From positions 7,203 to 71,202 of the forward strand of contig CALRFU010000001.1 in assembly GCA_943356775.1 (NCBI GenBank): a stretch of DNA of 64,000 nt, written 5' to 3'. The notes under the pieces are model-generated. The model ran no database searches, was not told the origin of the DNA, and saw nothing but the letters and a program-made list of their open reading frames with translations. The stretch is from Candidatus Nomurabacteria bacterium (GTDB lineage Bacteria > Patescibacteriota > Minisyncoccia > Phycocordibacterales > UBA2100). Of this stretch, positions 2,267 through 24,562 are shown piece by piece (the stretch's first letter is position 1; each line of letters opens with the position of its first letter). A program made the position numbers and the translations under genes.

Positions 2267-2267
2267 T

Positions 2268-3807: not shown

Positions 3808-3830
3808 GGTGTGTTACTATATCGGCACTT

Positions 3831-4625: not shown

Positions 4626-4698
4626 GAAGTGGCTTCGGTGCGGCTCTGTGATACAGTAGAGCCAATAATTAACAAGTAATAGTAGAAATCATCACGTT

Positions 4699-4926
4699 AT
4701 GGATATCGAATCAGCACGACTCATCGGTATGGCAATCGCAGCCGGTGTTGGGGTAATCGGGCCGGGCATCGGCGTAGGTCTTATCGGCGGGCGCGCAATG
4801 GATGCAATCGGACGAAATCCAGATGCGGCAGGTAAAATTGTTTCAAACATGATCCTCCCGATCGTGTTCACGGAAGCGCTCGGCATTCTCGCGCTTGTGG
4901 TCGCTTTCATTATCAAATTCGTTTAG
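4699..4926 (+). CDS. atpE: F-type ATP synthase Fo subunit c
   Basis: 75-aa two-helix proteolipid. GxGxGxG helix 1 (GVGVIGPGIGVG), polar loop GRNPD and the conserved carboxylate in FTEALGILALV. Confidence 0.9.
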   Translation: MDIESARLIGMAIAAGVGVIGPGIGVGLIGGRAMDAIGRNPDAAGKIVSNMILPIVFTEALGILALVVAFIIKFV

Positions 4927-4941
4927 TCCTACGAGAGCTTC

Positions 4942-5391
4942 ATGGATGGACTGATTAGTGCGTTCGGAATTGATTGGAGACTCCTCGTCATACAGGGCGT
5001 CAATTTCGCCGCGCTTTTGGCGGGCCTTACGTACTTCTTGTATACGCCCGTCATGAAACTTATCGACGAGCGGCGTGAACGTGTCGCCGAGGGCGTACGC
5101 TCTGCCGCAGAAGCCGACAGGAAACTCGCGGATGCCAAGACCACAGGTGAAGGTATTGTAGGTACCGCAGCACGCGAAGCGGAGGTCTTGGTCGCGACGG
5201 CGCGAAGCCGCGCAGACGAGAAGGGAAATGAAATTCTAAAAGCGGCAGAGGTCCGCGCAGCCGGTGTGCTCGCGGAGGCGGCCGTTAATGCCGAAGAGGC
5301 AAAACGTAAGGCGCTCGCGGAGAGTTCAAAGGAAATCGCGCGGACTGCAGTCTTGGCAGCGGAGAAAATATTGAGGGAGAAATCAGCATAG
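4942..5391 (+). CDS. atpF: F-type ATP synthase Fo subunit b
   Basis: N-terminal TM helix followed by a long Ala/Glu/Arg/Lys-rich coiled-coil. Position between atpE and atpH. Confidence 0.75.
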   Translation: MDGLISAFGIDWRLLVIQGVNFAALLAGLTYFLYTPVMKLIDERRERVAEGVRSAAEADRKLADAKTTGEGIVGTAAREAEVLVATARSRADEKGNEILKAAEVRAAGVLAEAAVNAEEAKRKALAESSKEIARTAVLAAEKILREKSA

Positions 5392-5392
5392 T

Positions 5393-5779
5393 ATGGAAAC
5401 GGCATACGCACAGGCATTGTGGAAGATGGTGGAGGGCGGCATGACTCCCTCAAAAGCAGTGCATGCGCTTCACGGCGTTCTCAAAGCAAATGGTCGCGAG
5501 GTGCTCCTGCCCCGTATTGCCAAAGCTTTTGCGCGAATCGCAGAGCGTGAGACCAAACGCACCGACGTAGTGCTCACGGTCGCGCGCGAGAAAGATGAGC
5601 GATACGCACACAAAGAAGTGAAAGAGATTCTCGCAGGTATGGGAGTCGAGACAAAGGACCTCAAGACGGAAGTCGACGATACGCTTATCGGCGGCTGGCG
5701 CCTCGAGGGCAGAGAGCGGTTGGTAGACGCAAGTTACAAAAATCAATTATTGGAATTATTTAACCGCGCGACCGCATAG
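5393..5779 (+). CDS. atpH: F-type ATP synthase delta subunit (OSCP), short form
   Basis: Position between b and alpha. N-terminal YAQALW... helical domain. Only 128 aa. Confidence 0.65.
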   Translation: METAYAQALWKMVEGGMTPSKAVHALHGVLKANGREVLLPRIAKAFARIAERETKRTDVVLTVAREKDERYAHKEVKEILAGMGVETKDLKTEVDDTLIGGWRLEGRERLVDASYKNQLLELFNRATA

Positions 5780-5782
5780 CAT

Positions 5783-7354
5783 ATGGATTCATCAACGATA
5801 GAGAAAATCATCAAGGAGATAGGGAACATCGCTCCCGCACACGAGGGCGAACATGTCGGACGCGTGGTAGCGGTCGGCGACGGAGTTGTAGCTATCGACG
5901 GTCTTTCAAAGGCGGTCATGAGCGAAGTCCTCATTTTTGAAGAAGGTAAAGGAAAAAAGCTTGCGGGTGCAATGGAAGACCAAGCCGAACTTTTGGGTCT
6001 TGTCCTCAACCTCGAAGAAGACGGTGTACGTGCGACGATTCTCGGGGACACATCCCGTGTGAGCGAGGGAATGACCGTCAAATCGACCGGCAAAATTCTT
6101 TCGGTCCCATCAAGCGAAGAGTTCCTCGGTCGCGTGGTGAATGCACTCGGTGAGCCAATCGACGGCAAGGGCCCTTTCAAGAAAACTACCCTCATGCCAA
6201 TTGAGCGACAGGCGGCCGGCGTCATCGACCGTAAATCAGTATCGGTACCGCTCGCGACGGGTACCAAAGCAATTGACGCCATGATTCCAATCGGTCGCGG
6301 TCAGCGCGAACTCATCATCGGAGACCGCGGTACCGGCAAGACGACCGTCGCCATCGACGCCATCATCAACCAAAAGTACGAACCCGAAGAGACGCGCCCT
6401 ATTTGTATTTACGTCGCTATCGGCCAGAAGGAATCTAAGACCGCGCGCATCTCACAGCAGCTCCGCGAGCAGGGAGCGATGGAGTACACAATCATTGTCG
6501 ACGCTCCCGCATCTGCTCCGGCCGCACTCCAGTACTTGGCCCCGTTCGCCGGTGTCGCCATCGGAGAATATTTCATGGACAAGGGGCGCGATGTCCTCAT
6601 CGTCTACGACGACCTTTCGAAGCAGGCGGTCGCATACCGCCAGCTCTCGCTTCTCCTGCGACGTCCGCCGGGCCGCGAAGCATATCCGGGCGACGTCTTC
6701 TATTTACACTCACGACTTCTCGAGCGCGCATGTCGCCTCAGTGAGGAGAAGGGCGGCGGCTCTATCACGGCGCTTCCTATCATCGAGACACAGGAGGGCG
6801 ACGTCTCCGGCTACATTCCGACCAACGTTATTTCCATCACAGACGGTCAGATGTTCCTCGTGACCGACCTCTTCAACAAAGGCATCAAACCGGCTATTGA
6901 TGTGGGTATCTCAGTCTCCCGCGTCGGCTCCGCCGCGCAGACCAAGGCGATGAAAGGCGTTGCCGGCGGTATCAAACTCGAGCTCGCGCAATTCCGCGAA
7001 CTCGAAGCCTTTATGCAATTCGCATCCGACCTTGATAAGGCCACTGCCGACCGCATCGAATCCGGCCGTCGCATGGTGGAAGTCTTGAAGCAGAAGAACG
7101 GTGCGCCGATACCTCTGGAGAAGCAAGTCGCCGCGTTGTACGCTGCAGGCAAAGCGTTCTTCATCAATGCTCCGGTCAACAAAGTCACTGAAGTTGAAAA
7201 ACAGTACATTGATTTTCTCGACGGTCAGTATTCGAAGACGCTTGCCGCGATTAAGAAGACAGGACAGCTCTCTGATGACACCAAAGCGGAACTAAACAAG
7301 GCAATGGAGGAATTCAAACTGGCACACGCGGAGCTCTTTAGTGTGGGAAAGTAG
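5783..7354 (+). CDS. atpA: F-type ATP synthase alpha subunit
   Basis: P-loop [15 protein letters not shown] plus conserved [23 protein letters not shown] and the [10 protein letters not shown] block. Confidence 0.95.
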
Positions 7355-7419
7355 ACAACCCTTCGACAAGCTCAGGGTACAAGAGCTTGTAGTTCGTAAA
7401 ACTCACAACAATCTCTCGT

Positions 7420-8334
7420 ATGGCAAACCTGAAAAGCATAAAATCAAAAATATTCTCGTATAAAAAGACGGGGACGGTGACGCATGCGATGGAAGCGGTC
7501 TCTGCGGTCAAGATGCGTAAGGGCCAAGAGCGCGCGCTTTCCGCCCGCGCGTATGCGGCCGCGGCACTTTCGGTACTTGAGCGCCTCTCCGGTACTGCCG
7601 ACATTGCCCGGCATCCGCTTATGCAAGAGAGGGAGGGGAAAACCGCCGTCATCGTCGTCACGAGCGACAAGGGACTCGCCGGCGCACTCAACAGCGGCGT
7701 TATCCGCAAAGTAGAGGCGGAGCTTCGTGAAAGGAATTTAAGAATCGAAGATGTTGTGGTCTACGCATTTGGGCGGCGTGGTGGTGAATATTTCACATCC
7801 CGCGGATATACGGTAGACAGCATTCAGACAAACGTAAGCGACGCAATTTCGGAAAGTGAAATGTCCGAAATGACCAAGGCGGTGCTCGGTCGCTCTGACG
7901 TCGCTTCCGTCATTGTCGGGTATCAGAATTTCGTTTCAACGTTCGAGCAGGCTCCCACGGTGCGGCAAATTGTGCCGATTCGCCCCGAGACGATGAAAGA
8001 AATTGTCGCAGGTATCCGCCCGGCAAAGGGTAAGTACGCTCCCGCCGCCGCAGAGGCTTCGGCTGAAGCAAAGCCCGTTGCCTACACCATCGAACCGGAC
8101 GCGGATTCTGTACTCTCCGTACTCTTGCCGAAACTCCTCAGCATCGCCGTATTCCATGCGCTGCTCGAAACAAAAGCTTCCGAACACTCAGCCCGCATGG
8201 TCGCGATGAAGAGCGCGACAGACAAAGCACGCGACATGGCCAAAGGCCTCACGCGAACATTCAACAAAGTCCGTCAGGCGGCAATCACACGCGAAGTTTC
8301 GGAGATAACATCCGGTATTGAAGCGATGAAATGA
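7420..8334 (+). CDS. atpG: F-type ATP synthase gamma subunit
   Basis: N-terminal IKSKIFSYKKT.ITHAMEAVSAVKMRK and C-terminal NKVRQAAITREVSEI helix typical of gamma. Confidence 0.9.
   Translation: MANLKSIKSKIFSYKKTGTVTHAMEAVSAVKMRKGQERALSARAYAAAALSVLERLSGTADIARHPLMQEREGKTAVIVVTSDKGLAGALNSGVIRKVEAELRERNLRIEDVVVYAFGRRGGEYFTSRGYTVDSIQTNVSDAISESEMSEMTKAVLGRSDVASVIVGYQNFVSTFEQAPTVRQIVPIRPETMKEIVAGIRPAKGKYAPAAAEASAEAKPVAYTIEPDADSVLSVLLPKLLSIAVFHALLETKASEHSARMVAMKSATDKARDMAKGLTRTFNKVRQAAITREVSEITSGIEAMK
8284..8330 (+). repeat. 47-nt direct repeat, copy 1 (last 15 codons of atpG)
   Basis: ATCACACGCGAAGTTTCGGAGATAACATCCGGTATTGAAGCGATGAA is identical to 9280..9326. Confidence 0.9.
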
Positions 8335-8337
8335 TGT

Positions 8338-8772
8338 ATGAAAGAAGAACCTGAAAACCCGAATGTTCGTCAGCTAGACGACAGACGGACTGTAAACCGT
8401 CTCGTTACTCTTGGAGAAGTCAGTGAAATCGCGGAACTTCTTAATTCAGCAGTTGTATCTGTTCTGGAAAAAGAAAAAAGAGAAGCTGAAATAAAAGAAA
8501 TCGTTGCACGGATCGGTGAAATGGGCGTCGGTGCCGAAAATAAGTCAATTTTTGAAACACTCGAGAATATAAACCTTATTACGTCCACTATTGCTGCACG
8601 CGAAAATGCCTCGATACCGGAAAAACGTGTTGCCGTTGGTCTTAAAGAGCTTGTTGCGGCGTTGGCGGTAACGCCCAAAGATCAGACTACCCAAGATACC
8701 GTTGAATTTTTACGCGCTCGTCTCGAGACGATTCAATGGTATGCGACGCGTAAAGACGGGCATACAAAATAA
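8338..8772 (+). CDS. Hypothetical protein (acidic, helical), cargo gene 1 inside atp operon
   Basis: 144-aa ORF directly after the atpG stop, in the same orientation as the operon. No recognisable motif. Confidence 0.4.
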   Translation: MKEEPENPNVRQLDDRRTVNRLVTLGEVSEIAELLNSAVVSVLEKEKREAEIKEIVARIGEMGVGAENKSIFETLENINLITSTIAARENASIPEKRVAVGLKELVAALAVTPKDQTTQDTVEFLRARLETIQWYATRKDGHTK

Positions 8773-8773
8773 C

Positions 8774-9226
8774 ATGAAGGAAGCTGTAGAGAAGATTGGT
8801 GCCAAGTATGAGCAGGCTATCAATGCCGCAACTGCGTCGCTGCTCGTTGAACTCTCCGAATCTCTTAATGTAATTATGGACACACTTCGGAAAACGCTGA
8901 ATCCACCGCCTGACGAAGTCTTTGTATCGCAGTTTGAGGAGCAGGTATTAGGTGTCATCGCACAAGCCTTTCAGGCGGCGTTGACGGACTGTGTCTCGAG
9001 CTTGAAACCACCAAAAATTAGACGGAGCAATGATGCCTTTTCGACCGCGGAAAAGAACCTCATCGAGGTAACGGTGGGACGTTTTCAGTCATGGAAATCA
9101 GATAATTTGAAGGAGGAAACAGGCGGGATCGCTGTGGTACTCAAAAAACCAGAATATCGAGACGAGGTTACGGCAATTCTCGCTCGCCATTTGAATGATG
9201 CTAGAAAGACTCTCCAAAGTTTGTAG
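8774..9226 (+). CDS. Hypothetical protein, cargo gene 2 inside atp operon
   Basis: 150-aa ORF from internal Met 8774, one nucleotide after the stop of the previous ORF. Predicted helical, no recognisable motif. Confidence 0.4.
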   Translation: MKEAVEKIGAKYEQAINAATASLLVELSESLNVIMDTLRKTLNPPPDEVFVSQFEEQVLGVIAQAFQAALTDCVSSLKPPKIRRSNDAFSTAEKNLIEVTVGRFQSWKSDNLKEETGGIAVVLKKPEYRDEVTAILARHLNDARKTLQSL

Positions 9227-9267
9227 ACATTGAAAATCTCCACATTACACGATAAAGTAGTGCACAT

Positions 9268-9330
9268 ATGAAAGGCACCATCACACGCGAAGTTTCGGAG
9301 ATAACATCCGGTATTGAAGCGATGAAGTAG
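9268..9330 (+). other. Chimeric 20-codon mini-ORF: atpD 5' head fused to atpG 3' tail (recombination junction)
   Basis: The ORF reads ATGAAAGGCACCATCAC|ACGCGAAG...GCGATGAAGTAG, encoding MKGTIT|REVSEITSGIEAMK*. Its first part matches the atpD start (ATGTCAAAAGGCACCATCAC, 9964..9983). The rest is the exact 47-nt atpG tail repeat. Confidence 0.8.
9280..9326 (+). repeat. 47-nt direct repeat, copy 2 (duplicate of atpG 3' end)
   Basis: Identical to 8284..8330. The stop codon changes from TGA to TAG. Confidence 0.9.
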
Positions 9331-9335
9331 CTCGT

Positions 9336-11341
<2,006 letters not shown>

Positions 11342-11343
<2 letters not shown>

Positions 11344-11395
11344 GTTCTAGGTTGAATTCAAAATGCATCTATATTTTCCCTAGCACCTAGAACCT
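11342..11395 (+). repeat. Perfect 11-bp inverted repeat (AGGTTCTAGGT / ACCTAGAACCT) with 32-nt loop in the atpD-atpC spacer
   Basis: Arms at 11342..11352 and 11385..11395. They are followed by tandem CACCTAG motifs that run into the atpC start codon. Confidence 0.6.
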
Positions 11396-11409
11396 GACAC
11401 CTAGCACCT

Positions 11410-11670
11410 ATGAATACCTTCCATCTCACGATAGCGAGCGTTGGAGAAACGCGCTTTGACGGTGCTGCCGTTTCCGCCACACTTCCGGGTACCGCCGGAG
11501 AATTTACGATTCTCCCGCATCACGAACCCATCGTCACGACCCTAAAGCCGGGGACAATCACGGTGCGCCTGCCTGCGCAGGCAGGCGAAAGTGAAGGGGA
11601 ACAAAAGACATTTGAGATAGAAAGTGGCGTGCTTGAGTGTTCGGGCAGCCGCGTGGTCGTGTTGCTCTAG
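11410..11670 (+). CDS. atpC: F-type ATP synthase epsilon subunit (short, beta-sandwich only)
   Basis: 86 aa. LTIASVGETRFDG...EFTILPHHEPIVTTLKPG matches the epsilon N-terminal beta-sandwich. Confidence 0.85.
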   Translation: MNTFHLTIASVGETRFDGAAVSATLPGTAGEFTILPHHEPIVTTLKPGTITVRLPAQAGESEGEQKTFEIESGVLECSGSRVVVLL

Positions 11671-11727
11671 AGGAGTGTTTTCAACACAGATGCCGATTTC
11701 TGTCATCGCAGGCCGTATACTGGCCAG

Positions 11728-12918
11728 ATGTCAGCGATGCATAAAGTAGAGGCAACTGCTTTGATTGTGAGCGTTCTACTCGCGCCATTCGTGCTTTCGG
11801 CTGCACAAGCCATTGATGCCGGATGCCGGGCGGCTACTCCGTCTGACCAGGCCCAACGCGCTGCCCGAGGAATACCGGAGACGTTTCAAGTCTGCCCAGG
11901 CGATGTACAAGCGCTCGGTATTGGGCAAAATTTCGAGCAGTGGTACGACCGGCTCAAGACCCAATCGCCTTGTAACAGAAATACGTGCACTCTGTCGTGT
12001 CGGACTCGCAATACAGGAGCACAAGTGTGTGGTCCGACGGCGACACGATGGAATTCGATCGGGTGTCATCCCAACAATAGAACCGCGATCTTCCCGACCG
12101 TTTCTCATGGATTCGCTGCGCACATTGAGCTGCTTCGCCGCTACTGCGGTGAGCGTGGACGCTGTACTATTGGAAGTGTTGTCCAACAGTGGACCGCAAC
12201 GGTTGGTGACCGACCGGCCTATGCTAACTTCGTTTCCAGAAACGCTGGCATTCCGGCGAATCAGGTGTATGACCCAAACGATATTGATCTGGTCGGAAGA
12301 CTTGCTCTCGCGATGTCGTGTTTCGAGGCAGGTTCCATGCCGTACAGCGCCGCCGAACTCAAGCAAGGCCTCGCTATGGCTGCGGGCGGAGCCAGAGTAC
12401 CCGTTCCTGCCAACGTCGGACAGTTGCTGGAAGAAAGTCTACAGGGAGGCTACGCCTCCAATCCGGGCTATTCGCCGAACTCTAGTCCGGGGAGCTGGGC
12501 GTATCCTCCCTCTAGTGCCAGTCAGAGCAATTACAGACCTCCACCTCCGCCGCCGATGCAACCGCTGATTCAATCACCATCTCGGCCGGAGCCCAAACCA
12601 GACCTGCCACTGACGCTTCCGCCGACTAATAATCTAGGCGCATCAGGAACGAACGTCCCATCTGCGTTACTCATCATCGCCCAGTCTCCACGGATTTCTC
12701 GTGGCGGCACAGCCCTTATCTCGTGGGTCTCGGTGGGGATGAAGCCCGATTCGTGTTCCGTCACACAAAACGGCTCCTTATTTGCGCGGGGGAATCAGGG
12801 CAGCAAAATATTTTCTTCGGCACTTACGGGTAGCCCAGGGTCAGCACGTGTCGTTCTGAGTTGCGTTTCGATCTCGGGTTCCACTCTTGAAAGAGACATC
12901 ACGATAACAGTTTTATGA
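11728..12918 (+). CDS. Secreted protein of unknown function (paralog 1): signal peptide, Cys-rich core, Pro-rich linker, C-terminal beta-rich domain
   Basis: Signal peptide with AQA cleavage site. Conserved blocks shared with 13235..15058 (C.R.N.GA, FP.V.HG.AA.I.L, GIP.NQ..DP, G.NQGS). Confidence 0.6.
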   Translation: MSAMHKVEATALIVSVLLAPFVLSAAQAIDAGCRAATPSDQAQRAARGIPETFQVCPGDVQALGIGQNFEQWYDRLKTQSPCNRNTCTLSCRTRNTGAQVCGPTATRWNSIGCHPNNRTAIFPTVSHGFAAHIELLRRYCGERGRCTIGSVVQQWTATVGDRPAYANFVSRNAGIPANQVYDPNDIDLVGRLALAMSCFEAGSMPYSAAELKQGLAMAAGGARVPVPANVGQLLEESLQGGYASNPGYSPNSSPGSWAYPPSSASQSNYRPPPPPPMQPLIQSPSRPEPKPDLPLTLPPTNNLGASGTNVPSALLIIAQSPRISRGGTALISWVSVGMKPDSCSVTQNGSLFARGNQGSKIFSSALTGSPGSARVVLSCVSISGSTLERDITITVL

Positions 12919-13035
12919 GCGTTATTCGACATACTGCGCGTACGCGAGGGTCTACTGATACTGATAGGGGTTGCCCTTATTTTTCCTGCAGTTGCGCTGG
13001 GTGCAATGCAGAAAGTGGTGTGCAATCCGGGGACA

Positions 13036-13186
13036 ACTCACGATTCTCCCGCATCACGAACCCATCGTCACGACCCTGAAGCCGGGGACAATCACGGTGC
13101 GCCAGGCAGAAGCTGAACCGACCGAGTTTAAAATAGAAAATGGCGTGCTTGAGTGTTCGGGCAGCCGTGTCGTTGTGTTGCTCTAG
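13036..13186 (+). pseudogene. 5'-truncated, diverged copy of atpC 3' half
   Basis: Encodes ILPHHEPIVTTLKPGTITVR...GVLECSGSRVVVLL*. The first 59 nt and last 37 nt are near-identical to atpC 11506..11670 and the middle has diverged. No atpC N-terminus is present. Confidence 0.75.
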
Positions 13187-13234
13187 ACATTGTTTTCAAC
13201 AGCAAGGGAAAAGTACGAGCTCAAGAAGGGTACA

Positions 13235-15058
13235 ATGAACGCAATGCGATTGGCGGCTCTATTTTTTGTTGCGCTCCTTTGTATCCTGCCCGCGGCACTA
13301 TTTGCAGCGGAGAAATTTGATCCGAAGGCGTATAACGGAAGTGACGACCAATGTCTGGATGAGAAGATTGTTATCACTAACGGGAAGGTGGGCACTCAAA
13401 AAGGTCGCACAGACACCGAACGATACAAAACCTGCAAAAATATCTCTGGTGGCTGTTCGCTCGCAAAGGAGAAGCTACAACCACCGGAATGCATTTGTGG
13501 AAAATTATACTACCCTCGCGAGGGAAAGAGTCCCGTCCCACTCGATAAATGCGATCCAGACATAAAAAAGAAGCTAGCGAAAGCGATGGCGGGAGGTATC
13601 GAGGGCATGGCCGCTTTTGCGACGCAGGAAAGGATAGCGGAGCGAATCGGGGAAATAGATGCATCGACGGCGGACGGCAGAGGTAAGCTCTCCCAGATAC
13701 TTCAGAGCTATGGAGTGACTAAAGCCGAGGCTGACGCGAAAGTGAACGACACAGATAAGGCCGCCGACGTACAGGCCCAGCTGCAAAAATTCGTCGGCAC
13801 ATCCGATACTGCTGAGGCAAAAAAAGTCGCGGACGACCTTGGACTCAAACTCAACGAAAACCTTACAGACGCGGTGCGCCTCGATCCAAAAAAGTACGAA
13901 GCAATTTTTTCCAAAGAAGAACTCGAGCGTGAGCAAATCGTCGTGCCGACGACCTTCCAAGAAGTCGTGCGGGGAGTAGTTGCTGGTACCCTCGCTCCTC
14001 TCTGCGGCAACTTGGGGGGATGTAGCGATGTTGCCTGTCAGAGCAATCCCGGCTCACTCACGTGTCGCACCAACAATCCCGGCGCCCTCACGTGGGCACC
14101 GTGGGAAGCAAAGTATGGCGGGCAGCCGTGTGGTGAGCGGAACAACACGGCTTGTTTTCCTAGTCTTGAGCATGGCCTTGCCGCAAAGATTGACCTCATT
14201 ACCGGCTCCAAATATCTCGGCGGTAGCAACAATACGATTCTCTCAATGCTGTGTAATGGATATGCTCCGAATTCGGACGGCAACAATTGCGGTTCTTATG
14301 CCACGTTCGTCCAGAATCAAACAGGCATCCCTATGAACCAAACCATCGACCCAAAGAATCCGGAACAAATAGGGAAGATAGCGATGGCGATGGCGCGTAT
14401 GGAAAACGGAAAATTCGTGCCGTTTACTCCCCAGCAGCTCGAAAATGCGATGGCCATGGTCTATGGCGGGACATTGCCCAATGGCACCCCGGGGTTCATA
14501 CCGCAAACAGCTTACGGCACGAATAATGGCAACGGATTCAACTCACCATTCAATTTTAGTTCTCCACCTTCGCCCACCAATGTAGGCTACGGCAGCCCGT
14601 TTGCAGGCACTTCTCAGGCTCCTGTCGCTCAAGCTTCGTACTCACAGCCACAGCCAACGCAGGCGGCGACACCTGTCTCGCAAACTATCGCGCAGCCAAC
14701 GTCTATTACTCAAACGCAAACGACCACCTCCGGCACGTCGAGCGTCGCCCAAAAGCTTCAACTAGCGCTCCAAGACGGGACGGGAACCACTGGTCAATCT
14801 CCGGCGACCGTCATCGCAGAGCCCAAAGATGTGACGAGAGGCAATCCGATTACTGTTGCTTGGACCAGCGTCGGCATGAGTGCAGACACTCCTTGTACGC
14901 TCCGAGCCAACTCGACCTTTATCGCCGAGGGTAATCAGGGCTCCAGGGTGGTGCCAACTACTGCGGCAACGCGAGTCGGCTCGCTCATCTTTACGCTCTC
15001 GTGCACCACCGCCTCAGGTACGAAATACCAAAGAACGGCGGCTGTTATGGTACGCTAG
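13235..15058 (+). CDS. Secreted protein of unknown function (paralog 2), with long Ser/Thr/Pro/Gln-rich linker
   Basis: Signal peptide MRLAALFFVALLCILPAALFA. Shares the Cys-rich core, the GIPMNQ block and the C-terminal domain (W.SVGM...C....N..F...GNQGS) with 11728..12918. The start is chosen at an internal Met. Confidence 0.6.
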   Translation: MNAMRLAALFFVALLCILPAALFAAEKFDPKAYNGSDDQCLDEKIVITNGKVGTQKGRTDTERYKTCKNISGGCSLAKEKLQPPECICGKLYYPREGKSPVPLDKCDPDIKKKLAKAMAGGIEGMAAFATQERIAERIGEIDASTADGRGKLSQILQSYGVTKAEADAKVNDTDKAADVQAQLQKFVGTSDTAEAKKVADDLGLKLNENLTDAVRLDPKKYEAIFSKEELEREQIVVPTTFQEVVRGVVAGTLAPLCGNLGGCSDVACQSNPGSLTCRTNNPGALTWAPWEAKYGGQPCGERNNTACFPSLEHGLAAKIDLITGSKYLGGSNNTILSMLCNGYAPNSDGNNCGSYATFVQNQTGIPMNQTIDPKNPEQIGKIAMAMARMENGKFVPFTPQQLENAMAMVYGGTLPNGTPGFIPQTAYGTNNGNGFNSPFNFSSPPSPTNVGYGSPFAGTSQAPVAQASYSQPQPTQAATPVSQTIAQPTSITQTQTTTSGTSSVAQKLQLALQDGTGTTGQSPATVIAEPKDVTRGNPITVAWTSVGMSADTPCTLRANSTFIAEGNQGSRVVPTTAATRVGSLIFTLSCTTASGTKYQRTAAVMVR

Positions 15059-15073
15059 CGCGGCAGGACGAAC

Positions 15074-15364
15074 ATGGCCTTCAAGAGAACAATAGAGGAT
15101 TTTGTTTGTGAGCATTGCGGCACTTCCGTGAAAGGCGATGGGTACACCAATCATTGCCCGCAATGCCTGTGGAGCAAGCATGTGGATGTAGAGCCAGGAG
15201 ATAGGGCGGCTACGTGCGGGGGGATGATGGAACCAATCGCGCTCGAAGGCGGGACCGGCAAGTATCGCATCATCCAAAGGTGTGAACGGTGCGAAATCTC
15301 GCGCCCCATAGCGGTAGGGAAGAACGATGATATGAAGGCAGTATTGGCTCTTGCGGGAAATTGA
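15074..15364 (+). CDS. RNHCP-domain zinc-ribbon protein
   Basis: 96 aa with CEHC, the signature TNHCPQC and the pair CERC. This matches the RNHCP-domain pattern as I recall it. Confidence 0.5.
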   Translation: MAFKRTIEDFVCEHCGTSVKGDGYTNHCPQCLWSKHVDVEPGDRAATCGGMMEPIALEGGTGKYRIIQRCERCEISRPIAVGKNDDMKAVLALAGN

Positions 15365-15384
15365 TAGCGTGTCATCATACTGAT

Positions 15385-15963
15385 ATGTCAGACGGCGGAG
15401 ATGGAGACGGCGGAAGCGGTGGTGGAGACGGCGGATTAGTCGACTTTTTTTGGGGTCCACTAAGCGGAGGTCCTCGCTCCATCCCTCATTACTACGGAGA
15501 TTACGTGCGCCAGCTCTTGTTGGGGGCTGCGGCACTCATGATGATATTTTCACCGCTGTACAGTGATGTGTTGCGCCAACAATTTCCTTTCATTATCATA
15601 GGTGCGGTTTTAGCCGTGTCGTTTGCCGCTTTGATGAACCCTCGTGATAAGTGGGTCGTCATCGGCAGTGCCGTCGTATCAGGAGGAGGTCTCGTTATCT
15701 ATGCGATGTGGGGTATGTTCGGATACGAAAACATAAGCCCTGTGGCGTTTATGCTGCGACTTGCCGTCGCGGTGATATTTCTCTTCGCATTCTATTTCAG
15801 CATGAAGACTCTTCGCGCATTTATGATGCGCCAGATAGGAAAGCGGGAGACGATTGATGAGTTTGAAGAGCCGGACGTAAAAATAGAGCAGGAAATGATT
15901 GAGCGTGAGGAAGTGCTCCGGGCGAAGGACGGTTCAGACGGATCACGTGGGCACAAGAAGTAA
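15385..15963 (+). CDS. Membrane protein with Gly/Asp-rich N-terminus (hypothetical)
   Basis: N-terminal MSDGGDGDGGSGGGDGG followed by about 4 hydrophobic helices. Confidence 0.4.
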   Translation: MSDGGDGDGGSGGGDGGLVDFFWGPLSGGPRSIPHYYGDYVRQLLLGAAALMMIFSPLYSDVLRQQFPFIIIGAVLAVSFAALMNPRDKWVVIGSAVVSGGGLVIYAMWGMFGYENISPVAFMLRLAVAVIFLFAFYFSMKTLRAFMMRQIGKRETIDEFEEPDVKIEQEMIEREEVLRAKDGSDGSRGHKK

Positions 15964-16167
15964 GAAGATATCCGTGCTTCTCGGGCACCCGGATAAGAAT
16001 GTTTTTTGCGGGGAGATGGCCAATGCCTACCGCGCGAGCGCAGTTGCTGCGGGGCACACCCACTCCTCGTCCGCCTCTTGCCGGGCAACGTCAATGCGCA
16101 GCTCAAGTGGGGAATACTGTGATTTGCGGATTTCCGACGCTGTTCGGGCGTATGGTACCATCGTACG

Positions 16168-18843
16168 GTGACCAAATCTTGGTACAAAGAAGAGTTGCCC
16201 GCGGTCTTTGAAGCGCTTCATTCGAATGAAGACGGACTCACGGTCGCGGACGCCGCACGGCGGTTGAAAGAAGATGGTCCCAATGCATTGCCGGAGGCAA
16301 AAGCTCCGGGTCTCGTCGTTACGTTCTTCCGGCAATTCCAGAGTCCGCTCATCTACATTCTGCTCGCCGCAAGCGGAATTGTATTTCTCTTGGGTGAAGT
16401 TGTGGATGCCGCCATCATTCTCTCGGTACTTCTCTTTAATGCGATTGTGGGCACTGTTCAGGAGGGAAGAGCGCAGAACACCCTCCTTGCGCTCAAGAAA
16501 TTTGTGGAGACTACCGCCACCGTGGTGCGAGACGGGCAAGAATTTATTATTCCGGACCGTGAAGTGGTGCGGGGCGATGTACTTCTATTGCAGGAGGGCG
16601 AAAAGATACCCGCGGATGCACGCGTGACCGCTTCGAGCGGTCTGAAGGTCGACGAGGCGTCTCTTACGGGGGAGTCCGAGCCGGTGAACAAAATACCGGA
16701 AGTTATAGAGGCAGAGATGCTCTCTACCCCCGAGCAACGCAATATGGTATTCAAGGGCTCAAACATTGTTGCCGGCAGCGGCAGAGCGGTTGTGGTGGGG
16801 ATTGGTCAGAATACGGTTATCGGCACCATCGCCACAGAAATATCCGCAATGGATTCCGAGATACCTCTGAAGGCGAGTATCCGGCATCTTTCCCGCGCCA
16901 TTATCATGGTCGTGGCGGTCATAAGCGTCATTCTTTTTATACTCGGACTTTGGAGGGGAGAGGAGATTGTCACCATCTTTACCACAGTGGTCTCTCTCGC
17001 AGTATCGGTAATCCCCGAAGGACTTCCTATCGTAATTACCCTCGTACTTGCGACAGGGGTCTGGCGCATGTCCAAGCGCAACGTTCTTGTAAAGAAGCTG
17101 CAGGCCGTCGAAGCTTTGGGGCAGGCGCGTGTCATTGCCGTCGACAAGACGGGTACGATTACTAAAAACGAACTCGTTATCCGCGAAGTGTGGACCGAGG
17201 GGAAGTCATTCAAAATCGGAGGCATCGGGTACGAACCGAAAGGAAGCATAGAATTTGGTGGTTCAGTAGTGGATGCCGCCAATCACCCGGAGTTACTCTA
17301 CGCCGGTAAAATGGGCGTTTTCTCCGCCAATGCGCGCGTGTCATTCTCAGAGGCGGAAGAACGGTGGCGTGTTGCGGGCGACCCGACTGAGGCGGCGATG
17401 CGCGTCTTTGGGGAGAAGGTTGGATTTTTTAAAGATGATTTAGTGCGTGAATGTCCGCTGGTATCCGAAATTCCTTTCGACTACCGTCTTAAATATCACG
17501 CTACCACGCACAACATTGAGGGAAAGAATTTCCTTACTGTGGAGGGCGCGCCCGAGGCGGTTCTTGCTCTGTGTACGCACATCCGCCGCGACGGAGGAAG
17601 ACATCCGTTGACCAAGAAAGACCGCGAAGAGCTTGAGGAGGTTCTCGTGCAGATGTCTGAGCGGGGTCTGCGCGTCGTAGCGGGAGCAATGCACGAGCAT
17701 ATCCCGGCATCTCTTACTCCGGAATCTCTGCGAGACCTCACCTTCGTAAGTCTTTTTGCTATGCAGGATGTACTGCGGCCTGAGGTGGCTGAGGCCATGA
17801 AGCGTGCGGCTTCTGCAGGCATCAAAGTGGTCATGATTACCGGCGACCACCGAATTACCGCGCGTGCTATCGCACAAGAGGCAGGCATCTGGAAGGAAGG
17901 AGATGAGGTACTCACCGCGACGGAAATAGACGCCATGTCCGATCTGCAGCTTGCGGAAAAGTTGACGACCGTCTCCGTCTTCGCGCGAGTGACGCCCGAA
18001 CACAAAATGCGCATTATTAATGCGTATAAGAAACGCGGAGAAATCGTCGCCATGACGGGCGATGGCGTAAACGATGCACCGCCCCTGGTCGCTGCCGACC
18101 TTGGTGTCGCCATGGGTAAAATCGGCACGGAGGTCGCCAAAGAGGCCGCGGACATTGTGCTTCTGGATGATAATTTCGGCAGTATTATTTCGGCCGTTGA
18201 GGAGGGGAGAAGTATCTACAAGACCATAAAGAAGGTGATTCTGTACCTATTTTCGACCAGTCTCGGGGAAGTGCTGGTAATTACGGGAGCGCTTGTGCTC
18301 GGGTATCCGCTGCCGGTCCTCGCGGCACAAATTATCTGGCTGAATTTCGTTACCGACGGATTTCTCGATGTATCGCTCGCGATGGAGCCCAGGGAGGAGG
18401 GTTTGCTTTCGGGCACGTTCAAGCATCCGAACAAATACATCGTGGACAAACTTATGGTGCAGCGCATGATTGTGATGGCGCTTCCGATGATGGTGGGAAC
18501 ACTCTTCATGTTCCAGGCATACTATGAGACCGACCTTACAAAAGCGTGGACGATATCCCTTACGACACTCGCAATCTTCCAGTGGTTTAACGCATGGAAT
18601 TGTCGCTCCGAGAGTAAGTCTATATTTCAGATGAATTTCTTCTCCAATATGTACCTCATCGGGGCAACGGCGCTCGTCATCTTCTTTCAAATACTCGCGG
18701 TGTACAACCCTTTCCTGCAGAGTATTCTCCGCACCGTTCCGCTCGAACTTTCAGAGTGGCTTATAATCGCGCTCATCGCCACCTCTATTATTGCGGCGGA
18801 AGAGACCCGCAAATATTTCTACCGTAAAACCCTGAACACTTGA
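16168..18843 (+). CDS. Cation-transporting P-type ATPase (type II, Ca2+/Mg2+-like)
   Basis: Phosphorylation motif DKTGTIT, TGES, hinge MTGDGVNDAPPLVAADLGVAMG, and 10 TM segments. Confidence 0.9.
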   Translation: MTKSWYKEELPAVFEALHSNEDGLTVADAARRLKEDGPNALPEAKAPGLVVTFFRQFQSPLIYILLAASGIVFLLGEVVDAAIILSVLLFNAIVGTVQEGRAQNTLLALKKFVETTATVVRDGQEFIIPDREVVRGDVLLLQEGEKIPADARVTASSGLKVDEASLTGESEPVNKIPEVIEAEMLSTPEQRNMVFKGSNIVAGSGRAVVVGIGQNTVIGTIATEISAMDSEIPLKASIRHLSRAIIMVVAVISVILFILGLWRGEEIVTIFTTVVSLAVSVIPEGLPIVITLVLATGVWRMSKRNVLVKKLQAVEALGQARVIAVDKTGTITKNELVIREVWTEGKSFKIGGIGYEPKGSIEFGGSVVDAANHPELLYAGKMGVFSANARVSFSEAEERWRVAGDPTEAAMRVFGEKVGFFKDDLVRECPLVSEIPFDYRLKYHATTHNIEGKNFLTVEGAPEAVLALCTHIRRDGGRHPLTKKDREELEEVLVQMSERGLRVVAGAMHEHIPASLTPESLRDLTFVSLFAMQDVLRPEVAEAMKRAASAGIKVVMITGDHRITARAIAQEAGIWKEGDEVLTATEIDAMSDLQLAEKLTTVSVFARVTPEHKMRIINAYKKRGEIVAMTGDGVNDAPPLVAADLGVAMGKIGTEVAKEAADIVLLDDNFGSIISAVEEGRSIYKTIKKVILYLFSTSLGEVLVITGALVLGYPLPVLAAQIIWLNFVTDGFLDVSLAMEPREEGLLSGTFKHPNKYIVDKLMVQRMIVMALPMMVGTLFMFQAYYETDLTKAWTISLTTLAIFQWFNAWNCRSESKSIFQMNFFSNMYLIGATALVIFFQILAVYNPFLQSILRTVPLELSEWLIIALIATSIIAAEETRKYFYRKTLNT

Positions 18844-18876
18844 ATTTTGGAGCAAAACAAGCGATAGTCAGGCATC

Positions 18877-19977
18877 ATGGGACTTTCAATAGGCATCGTC
18901 GGTCTTCCCAACGTCGGTAAATCGACGCTTTTTAATGCATTGACCAAGAAGGGCGTACCCGCCGAGAATTATCCTTTTTGTACGATTGACCCGTCCGTAG
19001 GCGTCGTGGCGGTTCCGGATTTCCGGCTCGATAAATTGGCCGTTATGTCCAACACGCAAAAAGTCGTATCCGCGATTGTTGAATTCGTGGATATTGCGGG
19101 TTTGGTGAAAGGAGCGTCGCAGGGTGAGGGATTGGGTAATCAATTTCTCACGCATATTCGCGAGGTGGATGCGATAGCGGAAGTAGTACGCATGTTTGAT
19201 GACGACGACGTCCATCACGTACAGGGTGAGACCGACCCGCTGCGCGACATTGAAACGATTGATTTGGAGCTTGTGCTTGCGGACATGCAGAGTGTCGAGA
19301 AGCGTCTTGAGCGTGCCGAGCGCGACTCAAAGGGTGGAGACAAGGAAATTATTGCCGAGCGTGACGTCCTGCAAAAAATACTTCCCGTGTTGAAGGTGGG
19401 GAAGGCGGCTCGCACGGTCGAGTTTACTGAAAAGGAAAAGCCGGTGGCAAAAGGCCTGCAGCTCCTTACCATGAAGCCGATTTTGTATGTGCTCAACAGA
19501 AAGAGCGGGACCGTGAATGTCGATGCGGAAAACGGAGAACGCTGGAGAGTTTTGCGGGAATTTCTCGAACGCGAGAAGGCACAGTATGTAGTGGTAGACG
19601 CCGGGGTCGAGAACGACCTCTCGGACGTGCATGACGACGAGCGCGCGGATTTCCGTCGTGAACTCGGCGTCGCCAATGACGGCCTCGATGATCTCATCAA
19701 GGGCGGATACAGCCTCCTCGACCTCATCTCATTCTTTACGACAGGAGAAAAGGAAACCCGTGCCTGGACGATAAAAAGAGGTTCGACTGCCCCCGAAGCA
19801 GGCGCCGCCATCCACACAGATTTCTTGAATAAGTTCATACGCGCGGAAGTCGTTCGCTGGGACGTGTTGCTTGAGGCTACCTCGTGGTCAAAAGCGCGTG
19901 AAAAGGGCACGCTTCGCACAGAAGGGAAAGAATATATCGTGCAAGATGGCGACGTAATGGAGTTTTTGCATAGCTAA
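18877..19977 (+). CDS. ychF: Ribosome-binding ATPase YchF (Obg-like GTPase family)
   Basis: G1 GIVGLPNVGKSTLFNALT, and a C-terminal TGS domain with the RAWTI block. Confidence 0.9.
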   Translation: MGLSIGIVGLPNVGKSTLFNALTKKGVPAENYPFCTIDPSVGVVAVPDFRLDKLAVMSNTQKVVSAIVEFVDIAGLVKGASQGEGLGNQFLTHIREVDAIAEVVRMFDDDDVHHVQGETDPLRDIETIDLELVLADMQSVEKRLERAERDSKGGDKEIIAERDVLQKILPVLKVGKAARTVEFTEKEKPVAKGLQLLTMKPILYVLNRKSGTVNVDAENGERWRVLREFLEREKAQYVVVDAGVENDLSDVHDDERADFRRELGVANDGLDDLIKGGYSLLDLISFFTTGEKETRAWTIKRGSTAPEAGAAIHTDFLNKFIRAEVVRWDVLLEATSWSKAREKGTLRTEGKEYIVQDGDVMEFLHS

Positions 19978-19988
19978 ACCTGTCTCGC

Positions 19989-20990
19989 TTGCGGTATCTA
20001 CCCCAAGTGCCATACTTTGGTCATATGGAGAAAGCAAAGGTAACGCCCAAGGACTTCGTTCTCTGGCTCGGTGCTATGGCCGCGCTGTATGCGGGAGTCG
20101 TGGCTTTTATTACGCTCGTGTTTGAGTATATTAATCACGCGTTTCCGAATCCCGTCACGAATTTGTATTATTACGATGCGTATTCAAATAGCAGCAGCAT
20201 CAGCTACGAGACAGCATCGCTCATCGTACTCACGCCCGTCTTCCTCGTCCTCATGCGATTGATACGGCGCGGTATTGCCGCTGACCCGTCACGCAATGAG
20301 ATTTGGGTTCGCCGTTGGGCGCTCTTCCTCACGCTCTTCTTGGCCGGCGCAACGATGGTCATCGATCTCATCATTCTTCTTAATACCTTTTTGCAGGGCG
20401 AGGACCTTACTACCGGATTCCTCCTCAAGGTGCTGACGGTGCTTCTCGTGATGGGGTTGGGCTTCATGCACTTCATGGCAGACCTCTGGGGATACTGGGA
20501 ACGCGAGAAAACACGTGCCCGCATGGTCAATTGGGCCGCGGGCGTACTCGTCCTCATCACGATAATCGCCGGATTCTTCATCATCGGCACTCCTCAGCAG
20601 ATGCGCGCTCAGAAACAAGACGCTATCCGCTTGCAGGATCTGCAAAACATTCAGTGGCAGATTGTGAATTATTGGCAGCAGAAAGAATCGCTTCCCGTAT
20701 CTCTCAATGATGTATTGGATCCGATTTCGGGCATCACAATCCCTGTTGACCCTGCAACGGGTGCGCCTTACGCGTACAAGCGCAACAGCCCGCTTGATTT
20801 TGTTCTCTGTGCGACTTTCGCGACCGAGGGGGGTACGAATGCGGGATACAACCTCCCTATGCCGGGGAAGACAGACCCTACGATGGGAGGCGAGCCGATT
20901 GAGGACAATTGGCTGCATGGCAAAGGAGAAGTCTGTTTTGACCGCTCCATTGACCCGCAACGTTACCCACCATACAGCAAGACGCAGTAG
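19989..20990 (+). CDS. Polytopic membrane protein, hypothetical
   Basis: Several hydrophobic helices. An alternative start at Met 20025 is possible. Confidence 0.4.
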   Translation: MRYLPQVPYFGHMEKAKVTPKDFVLWLGAMAALYAGVVAFITLVFEYINHAFPNPVTNLYYYDAYSNSSSISYETASLIVLTPVFLVLMRLIRRGIAADPSRNEIWVRRWALFLTLFLAGATMVIDLIILLNTFLQGEDLTTGFLLKVLTVLLVMGLGFMHFMADLWGYWEREKTRARMVNWAAGVLVLITIIAGFFIIGTPQQMRAQKQDAIRLQDLQNIQWQIVNYWQQKESLPVSLNDVLDPISGITIPVDPATGAPYAYKRNSPLDFVLCATFATEGGTNAGYNLPMPGKTDPTMGGEPIEDNWLHGKGEVCFDRSIDPQRYPPYSKTQ

Positions 20991-21095
20991 CGTCTTGCTC
21001 TGAGAACCCTCGGTTCTCAGCGGGTTTCACCCTGCTCTCCGACACGGGAAAACTACAGTTTTCCCGATCCCTTTCGCACGGCGCGTTCCGCGCCG
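20976..21095 (+). promoter_or_regulatory. Four consecutive perfect hairpins in the spacer upstream of leuS (terminator/leader candidate)
   Basis: The four hairpins are GCAAGACGC-agta-GCGTCTTGC (spans the upstream stop), GAGAACC-ctc-GGTTCTC, GGGAAAAC-taca-GTTTTCCC and CGGCGCG-ttc-CGCGCCG. Confidence 0.35.
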
Positions 21096-21152
21096 CAAAG
21101 CCATGCACTTTTGGTGACTTTCATTCAATTCGGTCTGTGTTAGTCTATTCCA

Positions 21153-24100
21153 ATGAAGTCCTACGAACACAAATCGATAGAAAAGAAGTGGGCAAAACGC
21201 TGGGAAAAAGACGGCCTCTACAAGACTAAGGATGTGGTAAAAGGCAAAGAGAATTTCAATCTTCTCGTCGAATTCCCGTATCCCTCAGGCAATCTTCACG
21301 TCGGACACTGGTACGCTTTTGCGGTGCCCGATATCCTCGCGCGGTTCCAGCGTATGCGGGGCAAAAACGTCCTGTATCCGATAGGTTTCGATGCCTTCGG
21401 TCTTCCGGCTGAAAACGCGGCCATCAAAAACAAACTTAACCCGCGCACGTGGACGCTGAGCAACATCGAGTACATGAAGAAGCAGATTCGCTCAATGGGT
21501 ACTTCATTTGATTGGTCGCGTGAAGTCGTGACCTGCGACCCTGCGTACTACAAGTGGACACAATGGCTCTTCCTTCAATTCTTCAAGGCAGGACTCGTCT
21601 ACCGCAAAGAGACGGCGGTGAATTGGTGTCTTTCCTGTAAGACGGTACTCGCCAATGAACAAGTTGTAAACGGAACATGTGAACGCTGTGACAGCGAAGT
21701 GGAGCAGAGGCAAATGCTCCAGTGGAATATCAAGATTACCGATTACGCGGACCGTCTTGTCGACGACCTCGATGCGCTTGATTGGCCGAAGGAGATAAAA
21801 GAATCGCAGAAAAATTGGATAGGCCGCTCCGAAGGTGCGGAGATAGATTTTCCGCTCGACCTCGGTATCAAATACAAGTATGTGCTTTTGCACGGCTTCG
21901 AAGGTGCCCCCGATATGCCCCGTTTCCATTTCTGGAAAGAAGAACTCGAAAAACTCGGCCATGAAGTAATCATCCCCGCTCTACCAGACACAAAGAATCC
22001 TTCCGAGGAAGAACAAGTCGCGGCCGCGCTCGCGGCTACCGAGTACGACGAACGCACCGTGCTCTTCGGGCACAGTCTGGGAGCCGTTGTCGCGCTCAAG
22101 GTCCTGGAGCGTCTCCAGAAGCCCATCGGACGCCTTGTTGTGGCGGGCGGATTTATAGACCCTGAGTTCAAGGATAAGCGGAGGAATTTCGAAAAGCGAT
22201 TTTCCTGGAAGTTTGACGTCAAGAAAATAAAATCGAACACCCCCGTGATTCACGTGTTGCATGAGACAAAAGACTACGGGGTGAGCGACAAGCAATTGCA
22301 ACGTCTGGAGGATTTCCTCGGTGTCAAAGCAACGCACATAGAAGGCGAAGCGCCTCACTTCACGGGACAGAAAGAGCGCTCAGTACTCATGTGGCTTCGT
22401 GCGACCATCCGGGTCTTTACGACGCGTCCCGACACCCTCTATGGCGCCACGTATCTCGTACTTGCTCCGGAGCATCCTCTCCTTCGCCAAGGCTTCGAAG
22501 GGCAAGCGTGGCTGAGCACTCTTCAAAATAAAGACGAGGTTAAGAAATATATCGAGTCATCGAAGAAGAAAACGGAAATGGAGCGTCTCGCGCTGAAGAA
22601 GAAGACGGGTGTTCAGTTGAAAGCAATTACGGCGATTAACCCCGCAACGGGCAAAGCAATTCCCGTATACATTGCCGATTATGTGCTCGGACACTATGGT
22701 ACGGGCGCCGTCATGGGCGTGCCCGCGCACGACGAGCGGGACAACGAATTTGCAAAGAAGTACGAACTCCCGATTATTGAGGTGATAGAACCTGCAGTGA
22801 CGCAGAGAGCGGGGCTCGATGCCGTCCGCGAAGAAGAGCCGTTCACAGAGCGTCCCGCGATTCTCGCCGTCGTCAAACACTGGTCCGAAGATACCTACCT
22901 GTGCCTTGCGTATAAAGCCAATGACGCCCGTGGATTTATTTCGGGCGGCGTAGATGCGGGGGAAGACTTCCTGGTTGCAGCTCAGAGGGAAATCCGCGAA
23001 GAAAGCGGATACAAGAATGTCGTTTTGGTTAAAAGCCTCGGAAGCGTTATCCATAGTAAATTTTATAGCCCGACCAAGCAGAAGAATCTTTCCGCGCACT
23101 TCACACCGTTTTTGTTTGAATTAAAAGACGGGGAACAGGAGGAAGTATCCGAGAGGGAGAAAAGGATTCAAGAGATGTGTTGGATGAAGAAAGAAGAAGT
23201 TGCCAATTTTGTAAACCGCGACGACTCCAGGATTGCATGGCGACGTGCCATGGGCATGGATGTATATGACGGCGAAGGTACGTTAGTGAATTCGGGTGAC
23301 TTCAACGGACAGTCGACTGAGAGTGCGCGGGAGGCAATCACGGAGAAACTTGGTACGGTAAAGACCACCTACAAACTACGTGATTGGATAGTTTCGCGCC
23401 AACGGTACTGGGGAGTTCCGATACCAATCGTTCACTGCGCGTCCTGCGGTCCTGTCGCGGTCAAAGACAGCGAGCTTCCGGTAAAGCTCCCGGAGGTGAA
23501 AGATTATCTCCCCGAGGGCAGCGGGAAATCGCCGCTCGCCAAGGCAAAGAAGTGGGTGCAAGTGAAATGCCCGAAGTGCAAAGGAAAAGCCGAGCGCGAG
23601 ACCGACACCCTCGACACGTTCGTCGATTCTTCCTGGTACTACCTGCGCTATACGGATCCGAAGAACAAAAAGAAATTCGCCGACGCAAAGAAACTGCAGA
23701 GCTGGATGCCCGTCGATTTGTACTCGGGTGGGGCTGAGCACACGACCATGCACGTCTTGTATTCGCGTTTCTGGCACAAAGCGCTCTTTGACCTCGGTCT
23801 TACCAAAGAGCCCGAGCCGTACACGCGCCGCATGAATCGCTCTCTCATTCTCGGGCCGGACGGGCAGAAGATGAGCAAATCCAAAGGCAATGTCATCGAT
23901 CCCGATGAGGTGGTGGGGCGCCTGGGAGCGGATACGGTGCGTATGTATCTCGCGTTTATCGGTCCTTATAACGAGATCAATACATATCCGTGGAGTCCTG
24001 ACAGCGTCGTCGGCGTCCGCCGCTTCTTGGAGCGTGTCTGGCGCGCCCAGGAGTATGTAGGGGAGGCAGATAGTCCCGCGCTTGAGAATCTTCTCCATAA

Positions 24101-24560: not shown

Positions 24561-24562
24561 CG

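Follow-up and report, generated by a model that had tools for sequence, protein, structure and literature searches.

In the 64,000-nt stretch of DNA analysed here (the window), two genes for predicted secreted proteins, gene 1 and gene 2, stand in tandem between the ATP synthase gene atpC and a gene for an RNHCP-domain protein, and are separated from each other by a truncated second copy of atpC. It appears likely that this tandem is the scar of a recent inter-lineage recombination in a Candidatus Kaiserbacteria population, and that both genes encode secreted peptidoglycan hydrolases. This reading is carried by the repeated atpC tail, the paralogy of the two genes, the presence or absence of gene 1 in otherwise nearly identical strains, the positions at which identity between these strains changes, the fold and conserved catalytic residues of the encoded proteins, and the variability of the same interval in related genomes. 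The locus is composed of the following elements.

5202..11289, plus strand: divergent, donor-like tract with the 3' part of atpF, atpH, atpA, atpG, two unannotated open reading frames (ORFs), a Ham1/ITPase gene and atpD (gene names from the L022 gene table)
End at 11343, plus strand: atpD (ORF map)
11290..11465, plus strand: patch free of mismatches to the sister strain, covering the 3' end of atpD, the atpD-atpC intergenic region and atpC codons 1-19
11410..11670, plus strand: atpC, 86 aa, beta-sandwich domain only (PF02823 at 1.1e-15)
11676..11727, plus strand: promoter-like composite motif of gene 1
11728..12918, plus strand: gene 1 (type 1), 396 aa (ORF map)
12919..13029, plus strand: 112-nt spacer between gene 1 and the atpC fragment, which would have come in with gene 1
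13030..13201, plus strand: displaced 3' part of atpC, namely codons 30-80, the stop codon (to 13186) and 15 nt downstream
13191..13243, plus strand: promoter-like composite motif of gene 2
13235..15058, plus strand: gene 2 (type 2), 607 aa from 13235, likely start 13244 (ORF map, promoter architecture and the homolog P0084)
15074..15364, plus strand: gene for an RNHCP-domain protein, which forms the conserved right-hand limit of the variable slot (PF12647 at 4.7e-28; synteny)

An earlier note on this DNA had described the succession of atpC, a secreted-protein gene, a truncated atpC and a second secreted-protein gene, and all of these elements were recovered at or near the positions it had assigned to them. 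Local alignment with a repeat finder pairs 11497..11686 with 13031..13201, in two blocks of 73 nt at 95% identity and 61 nt at 90%, the latter including the stop codon. The middle of the repeat has diverged and holds an 18-nt length difference, and the longest exact repeat between the two tails is 37 nt. The segment is a true 3' fragment of atpC, a pseudogene remnant, and its homology to atpC, its intact stop and its diverged middle are as first described, except that it begins at codon 30 and not at codon 31. The intact atpC is itself a chimera: its codons 1-19 are the same as in a sister strain, and from codon 20 it diverges, with a loop 6 codons longer and ESG where the sister strain has ENG in the atpC alignment. 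The paralogy of genes 1 and 2, also claimed in the earlier note, was borne out by pairwise alignment (29% identity over 352 columns, E 9e-35 in BLASTP).

The sister strain provides the decisive comparison. In the loci L008-L011 and in the 71.6-kb contig L073, gene 1 is absent, an intact atpC of 80 aa directly precedes gene 2, and the gene 2 product is 100% identical to that of the window; gene 2 is the resident gene of this interval. The atpC fragment of the window corresponds to the last 171 nt of the intact sister-strain atpC at 100% identity, and there are zero mismatches to L073 from 13030 to 13519. Over the fragment and gene 2 together, only 1 mismatch in 2,049 nt was found between the window and L008/L073, which points to a recent recombination event. 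The identity of the window to L073 changes along the sequence as follows.

993..5201: 99.55% (19 mismatches), backbone
5202..11289: about 75-95%, from the 3' part of atpF to atpD, with 8335..9335 lacking a counterpart
11290..11465: no mismatch, end of atpD, intergenic region and atpC codons 1-19
11466..13029: diverged in atpC codons 20-86, and missing from L073 for gene 1 and the spacer
13030..25058: 99.48%, backbone

Judging from these identities, the window and L073 are one species-level backbone that differs by one tract (5202..13029). The switch at 5202 is abrupt, from 0 mismatches to about 25% divergence inside atpF (4942..5391), and an alternative left switch lies at 11465/11466 inside atpC. 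Because the window lacks any counterpart of codons 20-29 of the L008/L073 atpC, the single-gene form cannot have arisen simply by deletion between the repeats; nor is the intact form derived from the truncated one, since a truncated atpC cannot have preceded an intact one.

Import of DNA from a related lineage would be the most economical history for this pattern, from which we infer the exact mechanism as well as the route of uptake. Before the event, the resident order would have been atpD, atpC (80 aa), gene 2 and RNHCP, as in a genome like L073, and the donor would have been a related lineage, about 9-25% divergent, with a type-1 gene in the slot behind its atpC. The left crossover would have been homologous and located in the ATP synthase operon, with its boundary at about 5202 in atpF, while the non-homologous right end, consisting of the 3' part of the donor atpC, gene 1 and 112 nt, would have been joined illegitimately inside the resident atpC at 13029|13030. 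Codons 20-29 of the resident atpC would thereby have been lost and its codons 30-80 shifted downstream together with gene 2, leaving a chimeric intact atpC, gene 1, the final 51 codons of the resident atpC as an orphan, and the resident gene 2. The patch at 11290..11465 may be recipient sequence retained in a mosaic import, or it may mark the left crossover of a separate, shorter import. The pattern matches homology-facilitated illegitimate recombination, also known as displacement: one boundary lies within homologous sequence (5202 in atpF, or 11465/11466 in atpC), and the other joins non-homologous DNA, with a gain of 1.56 kb and with resident codons 20-29 missing. The divergence between the two atpC tails would then reflect the distance between two lineages and not the time since a duplication. 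Under the import model, the ATP synthase would be chimeric as well, with atpB, atpE and the 5' part of atpF being resident and the 3' part of atpF, atpH, atpA, atpG, atpD and most of atpC coming from a lineage 10-25% divergent at the nucleotide level. The exact sequence of the window AtpD, when looked up, had no record.

Some further differences from the sister strain were noted in and near this tract. Between atpG and the Ham1 gene, within the divergent tract, lie two ORFs of 144 and 161 aa without Pfam hits (8338..9226, plus strand), in place of which L073 has an unrelated ORF of 110 aa. The Ham1/ITPase gene itself (9336..9926, plus strand) is situated within the ATP synthase operon, between atpG and atpD; the same operon position is occupied by a NUDIX hydrolase gene in the related locus L001 (5875..6282) and by nothing in L005. 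To the right of the tandem, the RNHCP gene has 22 mismatches to L073 within 135 nt at its 5' end (15079..15213), and a P-type ATPase gene has 9 within 37 nt (16365..16401). Both clusters resemble additional short tracts of mosaic recombination, one of which falls on the slot's right edge.

The interval between atpC and RNHCP is also variable among relatives, the related loci and homologs being labelled as Candidatus Kaiserbacteria or as other Parcubacteria/Paceibacterota metagenome-assembled genomes (MAGs). The first relatives examined have exactly one gene in this position, which is either of type 1 (about 390 aa; 69% identity in L001, 60% in L005) or of type 2 (about 600-630 aa; 68% in L012, 65% in L014). 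In a survey of 39 further Kaiserbacteria-like loci, one type-2 gene was present in many, the slot was empty in L027, L047 and L053, and up to three genes were found in L034. Other slot proteins have only the C-terminal ~85 residues in common, and the domains identified in slot proteins include SLT (L032, L051), DPBB_1 (L056) and PG_binding_1 (L051). The atpC-RNHCP interval is a hypervariable slot across Kaiserbacteria. The survey of relatives proposed in the earlier note thus revealed a variable cassette behind atpC, and a second atpC tail in none of about 60 other loci (tblastn; blastn of each locus against its own atpC). The loop insertion and the serine of the window atpC were considered as a signature of type-1 lineages and proved to be a weak one, as atpC is mosaic among lineages and L005, which is of type 1, lacks the insertion.

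Both genes of the tandem are preceded by a promoter-like element. The motif TGTTTTCAACA, which the earlier note had reported after both atpC stop codons, has exactly 2 matches in 64 kb (11676 and 13191), compared with 0.04 expected by chance. Alignment of the loci revealed a composite element behind the atpC stop, composed of GTTTTCAACA, 29-30 non-conserved nt, (G)G/C-TACAAT, 6-7 nt and ATG. Before gene 1 it consists of (TG)TTTTCAACA at 11676..11686, a 29-nt spacer, TATACT at 11716..11721, 6 nt and the ATG at 11728; before gene 2, of TGTTTTCAACA at 13191..13201, a 29-nt spacer, TACAAT at 13231..13236, 7 nt and the ATG at 13244. Within the window the composite element occurs only at 11679 and 13194, before genes 1 and 2. 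It was identified in 24 of 36 distinct Kaiserbacteria-like loci (L001, L008, L012, L014, L026, L028, L030, L032-L043, L046, L048-L050 and L056) and is nearly absent elsewhere in them. The element has no -35-like hexamer, and as its -10-like box lies 6-7 nt before the ATG, a leaderless transcript is predicted. This architecture, together with the N-terminus of P0084, makes 13244 a more likely start of gene 2 than 13235. The composite element would thus be a conserved regulatory feature of the slot that is carried by the cassette of each lineage, and not an attachment site, with GTTTTCAACA as the predicted upstream binding site for some factor. Both paralogs probably keep their own promoters, so that expression through the ATP synthase operon, which the earlier note had proposed, would not be needed.

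Neither protein gave a meaningful hit to Pfam and NCBIfam models, and the function is suggested by structure and distant similarity. Gene 1 encodes an apparent signal peptide, a core domain at about aa 82-230, a Pro/Ser-rich linker and an Ig/PKD-like C-terminal domain at about aa 313-396. Gene 2 encodes an apparent signal peptide, a Cys-containing, charged helical N-terminal region of about 230 aa, the corresponding core at about aa 268-420, a Ser/Thr/Pro/Gln-rich linker and an Ig/PKD-like domain. The signal peptides were judged by inspection of the N-termini. The core of gene 1 (aa 29-240) was modelled with AlphaFold2 on the basis of a family alignment of 87 sequences, with a predicted local distance difference test score (pLDDT) of 90.6. 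In a Foldseek search of the PDB with this model, the two chains of the Enc34 endolysin catalytic domain, 7q47_B and 7q47_A, ranked first and second with probability 1.00 (template modelling score 0.65 on the target and 0.50-0.52 on the query), and the next hit had a probability of 0.09. The family profile matched 9vvp_L, a phage Gp29 chain, at 1.3e-8, and PHROG 873 ('endolysin') was matched at 1.1e-10 by gene 1 and 2.2e-13 by gene 2, with weaker hits to a tape-measure family. Matches in BFVD were virion proteins, a tail-fiber/lysozyme protein and internal virion protein D. The C-terminal domain was modelled as a seven-strand Ig/PKD-like sandwich (pLDDT 92.7) with generic matches only.

The Enc34 enzyme belongs to the PHA02564 family with a lysozyme-like fold; its Glu131 has been proposed as the catalytic residue, Tyr95 and Trp79 are also important, and an N-acetylglucosaminidase activity has been argued for it (Cernooka et al. 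2022, PMC8943055). In alignments based on hidden Markov models, Glu131, Tyr95 and Trp79 correspond to E200, Y165 and W155 of gene 1 and to E390, Y355 and Y343 of gene 2. The Glu and the Tyr of this triad are invariant in the 87 sequences, and the third position is aromatic. Genes 1 and 2 are therefore best regarded as candidates for secreted modular peptidoglycan hydrolases, whose catalytic domain is probably a glycosidase that uses the conserved Glu, and whose substrate may be the wall of the cell itself or that of a host. The family, which had seemed novel in the earlier note, is not novel in kind and appears to be a divergent branch, found in cells, of a muralytic family already known from phages, with an added Ig-like module. 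When the core was searched with phmmer against 1.84 billion cluster representatives, 359 were found at E up to 1e-3 and 32 at E up to 1e-10, suggesting that the domain family is widespread and the subfamily of the candidate phyla radiation (CPR) small. The modular character extends to other proteins: P0084 resembles gene 2 in its N-terminal 266 residues (62% identity) and C-terminal domain (52%), with an RlpA-type DPBB domain replacing the Enc34-type core, and P0062 combines an SLT domain with a C-terminal domain like that of gene 1 (51%). Elsewhere in the window, at 32389..39479 on the minus strand, are genes for an M23 peptidase, a GltX-like tRNA synthetase, MurG, FtsW, MraY and a DD-carboxypeptidase; the presence of MurG, FtsW, MraY, the DD-carboxypeptidase and the M23 peptidase indicates that the organism makes peptidoglycan.

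Several observations weigh against the proposed import of a hydrolase gene. The donor lineage was not found in the collections searched, where the closest type-1 genes are 69-70% identical. As the patch at 11290..11465 interrupts the divergent tract without a single mismatch, the import was either discontinuous (mosaic) or made up of two distinct events. Which of the two strains has changed across 5202..11289 would be deduced from the truncated atpC. As to function, sequence alone gives a weak match to 7Q47 (E 0.05), the Foldseek E value is 2.8e-3, and a consensus scan of 11300..15400 for sigma-70 promoters and for terminators predicted no promoter at either site; it returned fewer hits than in shuffled sequence and was uninformative.

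The question of polarity leads to the rival that survives best, in which the tandem is the older backbone, itself made by an earlier, unseen event of the same kind, and a later import between atpF and the orphan tail deleted gene 1 and rebuilt atpC in the sister strain. One contiguous differing tract between flanks that are about 99.5% identical is symmetrical as to direction, and the 171 nt of homology in the orphan tail could have served as a right anchor. However, this history requires more events as well as a third lineage with an atpC tail identical to the orphan tail, and the orphan tail would still have been made by the joining of foreign atpC and gene 1 upstream of a resident atpC, which leaves the nature of the scar unchanged. 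It is accordingly held to be improbable.

Slightly less credit is due to site-specific integration, in which a small mobile cassette with an attachment site in atpC would have brought a replacement atpC 3' end, in the manner of islands at tRNA genes. Direct repeats with a 37-nt exact core do flank the insert, the target gene is regenerated and the slot is hypervariable among lineages. Against this, 11466..13029 holds only gene 1 and no integrase or recombinase ORF, and its neighbours are atp genes and RNHCP; the repeats are as different as the two lineages, indel included; donor-type divergence runs about 6 kb further upstream to 5202, far past any cassette boundary; and a second atpC tail is present in 0 of the ~60 related loci. 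Rfam and tRNA scans of the 64-kb window found nothing, and hence no tRNA-type integration site, and no inverted repeats or transposon ends were found around the insert. Thus, of the suggestion in the earlier note that an integration had regenerated the 3' end of atpC, one part holds, as the incoming DNA would have carried its own atpC 3' part, and the site-specific mechanism does not. The GC content of gene 1, overall and at third codon positions, is not distinctive from its surroundings, and no homolog of the spacer (12919..13029) was present in any of the loci fetched. A 14-nt atpC-like match in the spacer (13010..13023) was treated as chance, given a shuffle p of ~0.017 and equal or better chance matches elsewhere in the window.

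Two remaining rivals have very little chance. An ancient intragenomic tandem duplication of the atpC tail and secreted gene, one of the two explanations offered in the earlier note, here with the tails kept alike by gene conversion, would account for the direct repeat of tail plus paralog, but the divergences are not comparable (tails 90-95% identical in nucleotides, genes 29% in amino acids), tail 2 is the same as in the intact atpC of the sister strain, which is ~99.5% identical and has no gene 1, either gene type occurs alone in the same slot in other lineages, and the difference between strains reaches 6 kb upstream of the repeat. Equally remote is an assembly chimera of two co-occurring strains (atpC-gene 1 and atpC-gene 2) fused at their common atpC sequence: both allele types are present in public metagenomes and Logan contigs with gene 1 break at the repeat, but such a fusion would not yield a 112-nt spacer followed by a truncated atpC, and the longest exact repeat of 37 nt is shorter than the k-mer of the k141 contigs. 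The same tandem was found in four other assemblies, L021-L024, at 99.6-99.97% identity, two of them being MAG contigs from NCBI and two k141 contigs from ENA. Moreover, five Logan unitigs from other runs (L016-L020) start within the first tail, cross gene 1 and the spacer without a break and reach 13069, which is 39 nt into the atpC fragment, and thereby span the junction 13029|13030. They stop, we infer, at the point where the 37-nt exact repeat should make a k=31 graph fork. That the assembly is chimeric is very improbable.

Apart from the tandem, the window encodes a leucyl-tRNA synthetase of 1135 aa (21153..24560, plus strand). Inside this protein, Pfam models also match a NUDIX domain (aa 590-692, E 4.5e-12) and, at the cut-off, a stretch resembling an alpha/beta-hydrolase (aa 244-346, E 1.4e-5). 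L001 and L014 show these additional hits in their gene tables as well.

Among known systems, the proposed import is closest to the effector-immunity arrays of Vibrio cholerae's type VI secretion system (T6SS) and to rhs C-termini, for which a displacement model has been put forward (PMC5361080); homology-facilitated illegitimate recombination in Acinetobacter, Streptococcus and Pseudomonas is cited in the same study. As in these arrays, homology in a conserved upstream gene would provide the anchor and the opposite end would be joined illegitimately, so that the new module comes first and the old one is moved downstream with an orphaned 3' piece of the upstream gene. In contrast to them, the anchor is the ATP synthase operon, the cargo is a predicted cell-wall hydrolase and not a toxin-immunity pair, the window contains one round of displacement only, and the organism is an uncultured CPR bacterium. 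The mosaic pattern at the locus also resembles the discontinuous (mosaic) donor segments that are among the results reported for natural transformation (PMC13344027). With tRNA and tmRNA islands the locus shares the duplicated 3' end of the target, the functional copy provided by the insert and the old copy left as a partial repeat; it differs in having no integrase or defined att core, a protein-coding target, donor-type sequence kilobases upstream and no recurrence in other genomes.

The proteins likewise combine familiar and unfamiliar features. With the Enc34 endolysin they share the predicted all-helical lysozyme-like fold, the motifs NNPG..., F..(x)HG.AA and W/Y...Y...E, and the equivalents of Glu131, Tyr95 and Trp79, at only ~19% identity. 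Unlike Enc34, they are cellular proteins of a CPR bacterium, whereas Enc34-type enzymes belong to phage lysis cassettes or virions, they carry an apparent signal peptide at the N-terminus in place of a C-terminal transmembrane domain, and they add conserved cysteines, a long low-complexity linker and the Ig-like C-terminal domain. In the combination of a predicted secreted catalytic domain with an accessory domain they are similar to modular autolysins and lytic transglycosylases (SLT/GH23, RlpA/DPBB), and versions in sister genomes have the same N- and C-terminal scaffold with SLT or DPBB replacing the Enc34-type core. They differ from modular autolysins in their catalytic family and in the Ig/PKD-like module, which is not among the domains known to bind peptidoglycan, for instance LysM, SPOR or PG_binding_1.

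The gene gain by recombination described here is clear but ordinary, in that it involves known processes and does not overturn current understanding; the variable hydrolase slot with its specific promoter-like motif is a modest new observation. The locus provides a base-pair-resolved case of natural gene gain in an uncultured CPR bacterium, with the alleles before and after the event both present in public metagenomes, and the import would have exchanged a large part of the ATP synthase operon for a version 10-25% divergent. A likely function as Enc34-type peptidoglycan hydrolases can be proposed, from sequence and models, for two CPR protein families so far annotated as hypothetical. A bolder possibility, which we consider rather unlikely, is that the slot is a dedicated, recombination-driven diversification locus for secreted wall-degrading enzymes, with a slot-specific operator and leaderless promoter. 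If so, Enc34-type, SLT and RlpA/DPBB modules would be swapped among lineages in the manner of polymorphic toxin or T6SS effector cassettes, the window would capture one displacement step in progress in a natural population, and the enzymes would determine the host walls that the episymbiont is able to breach or the way in which its own wall is remodelled. The variable slot and its conserved regulatory motif may also matter for the remodelling of the wall or for interaction with a host.

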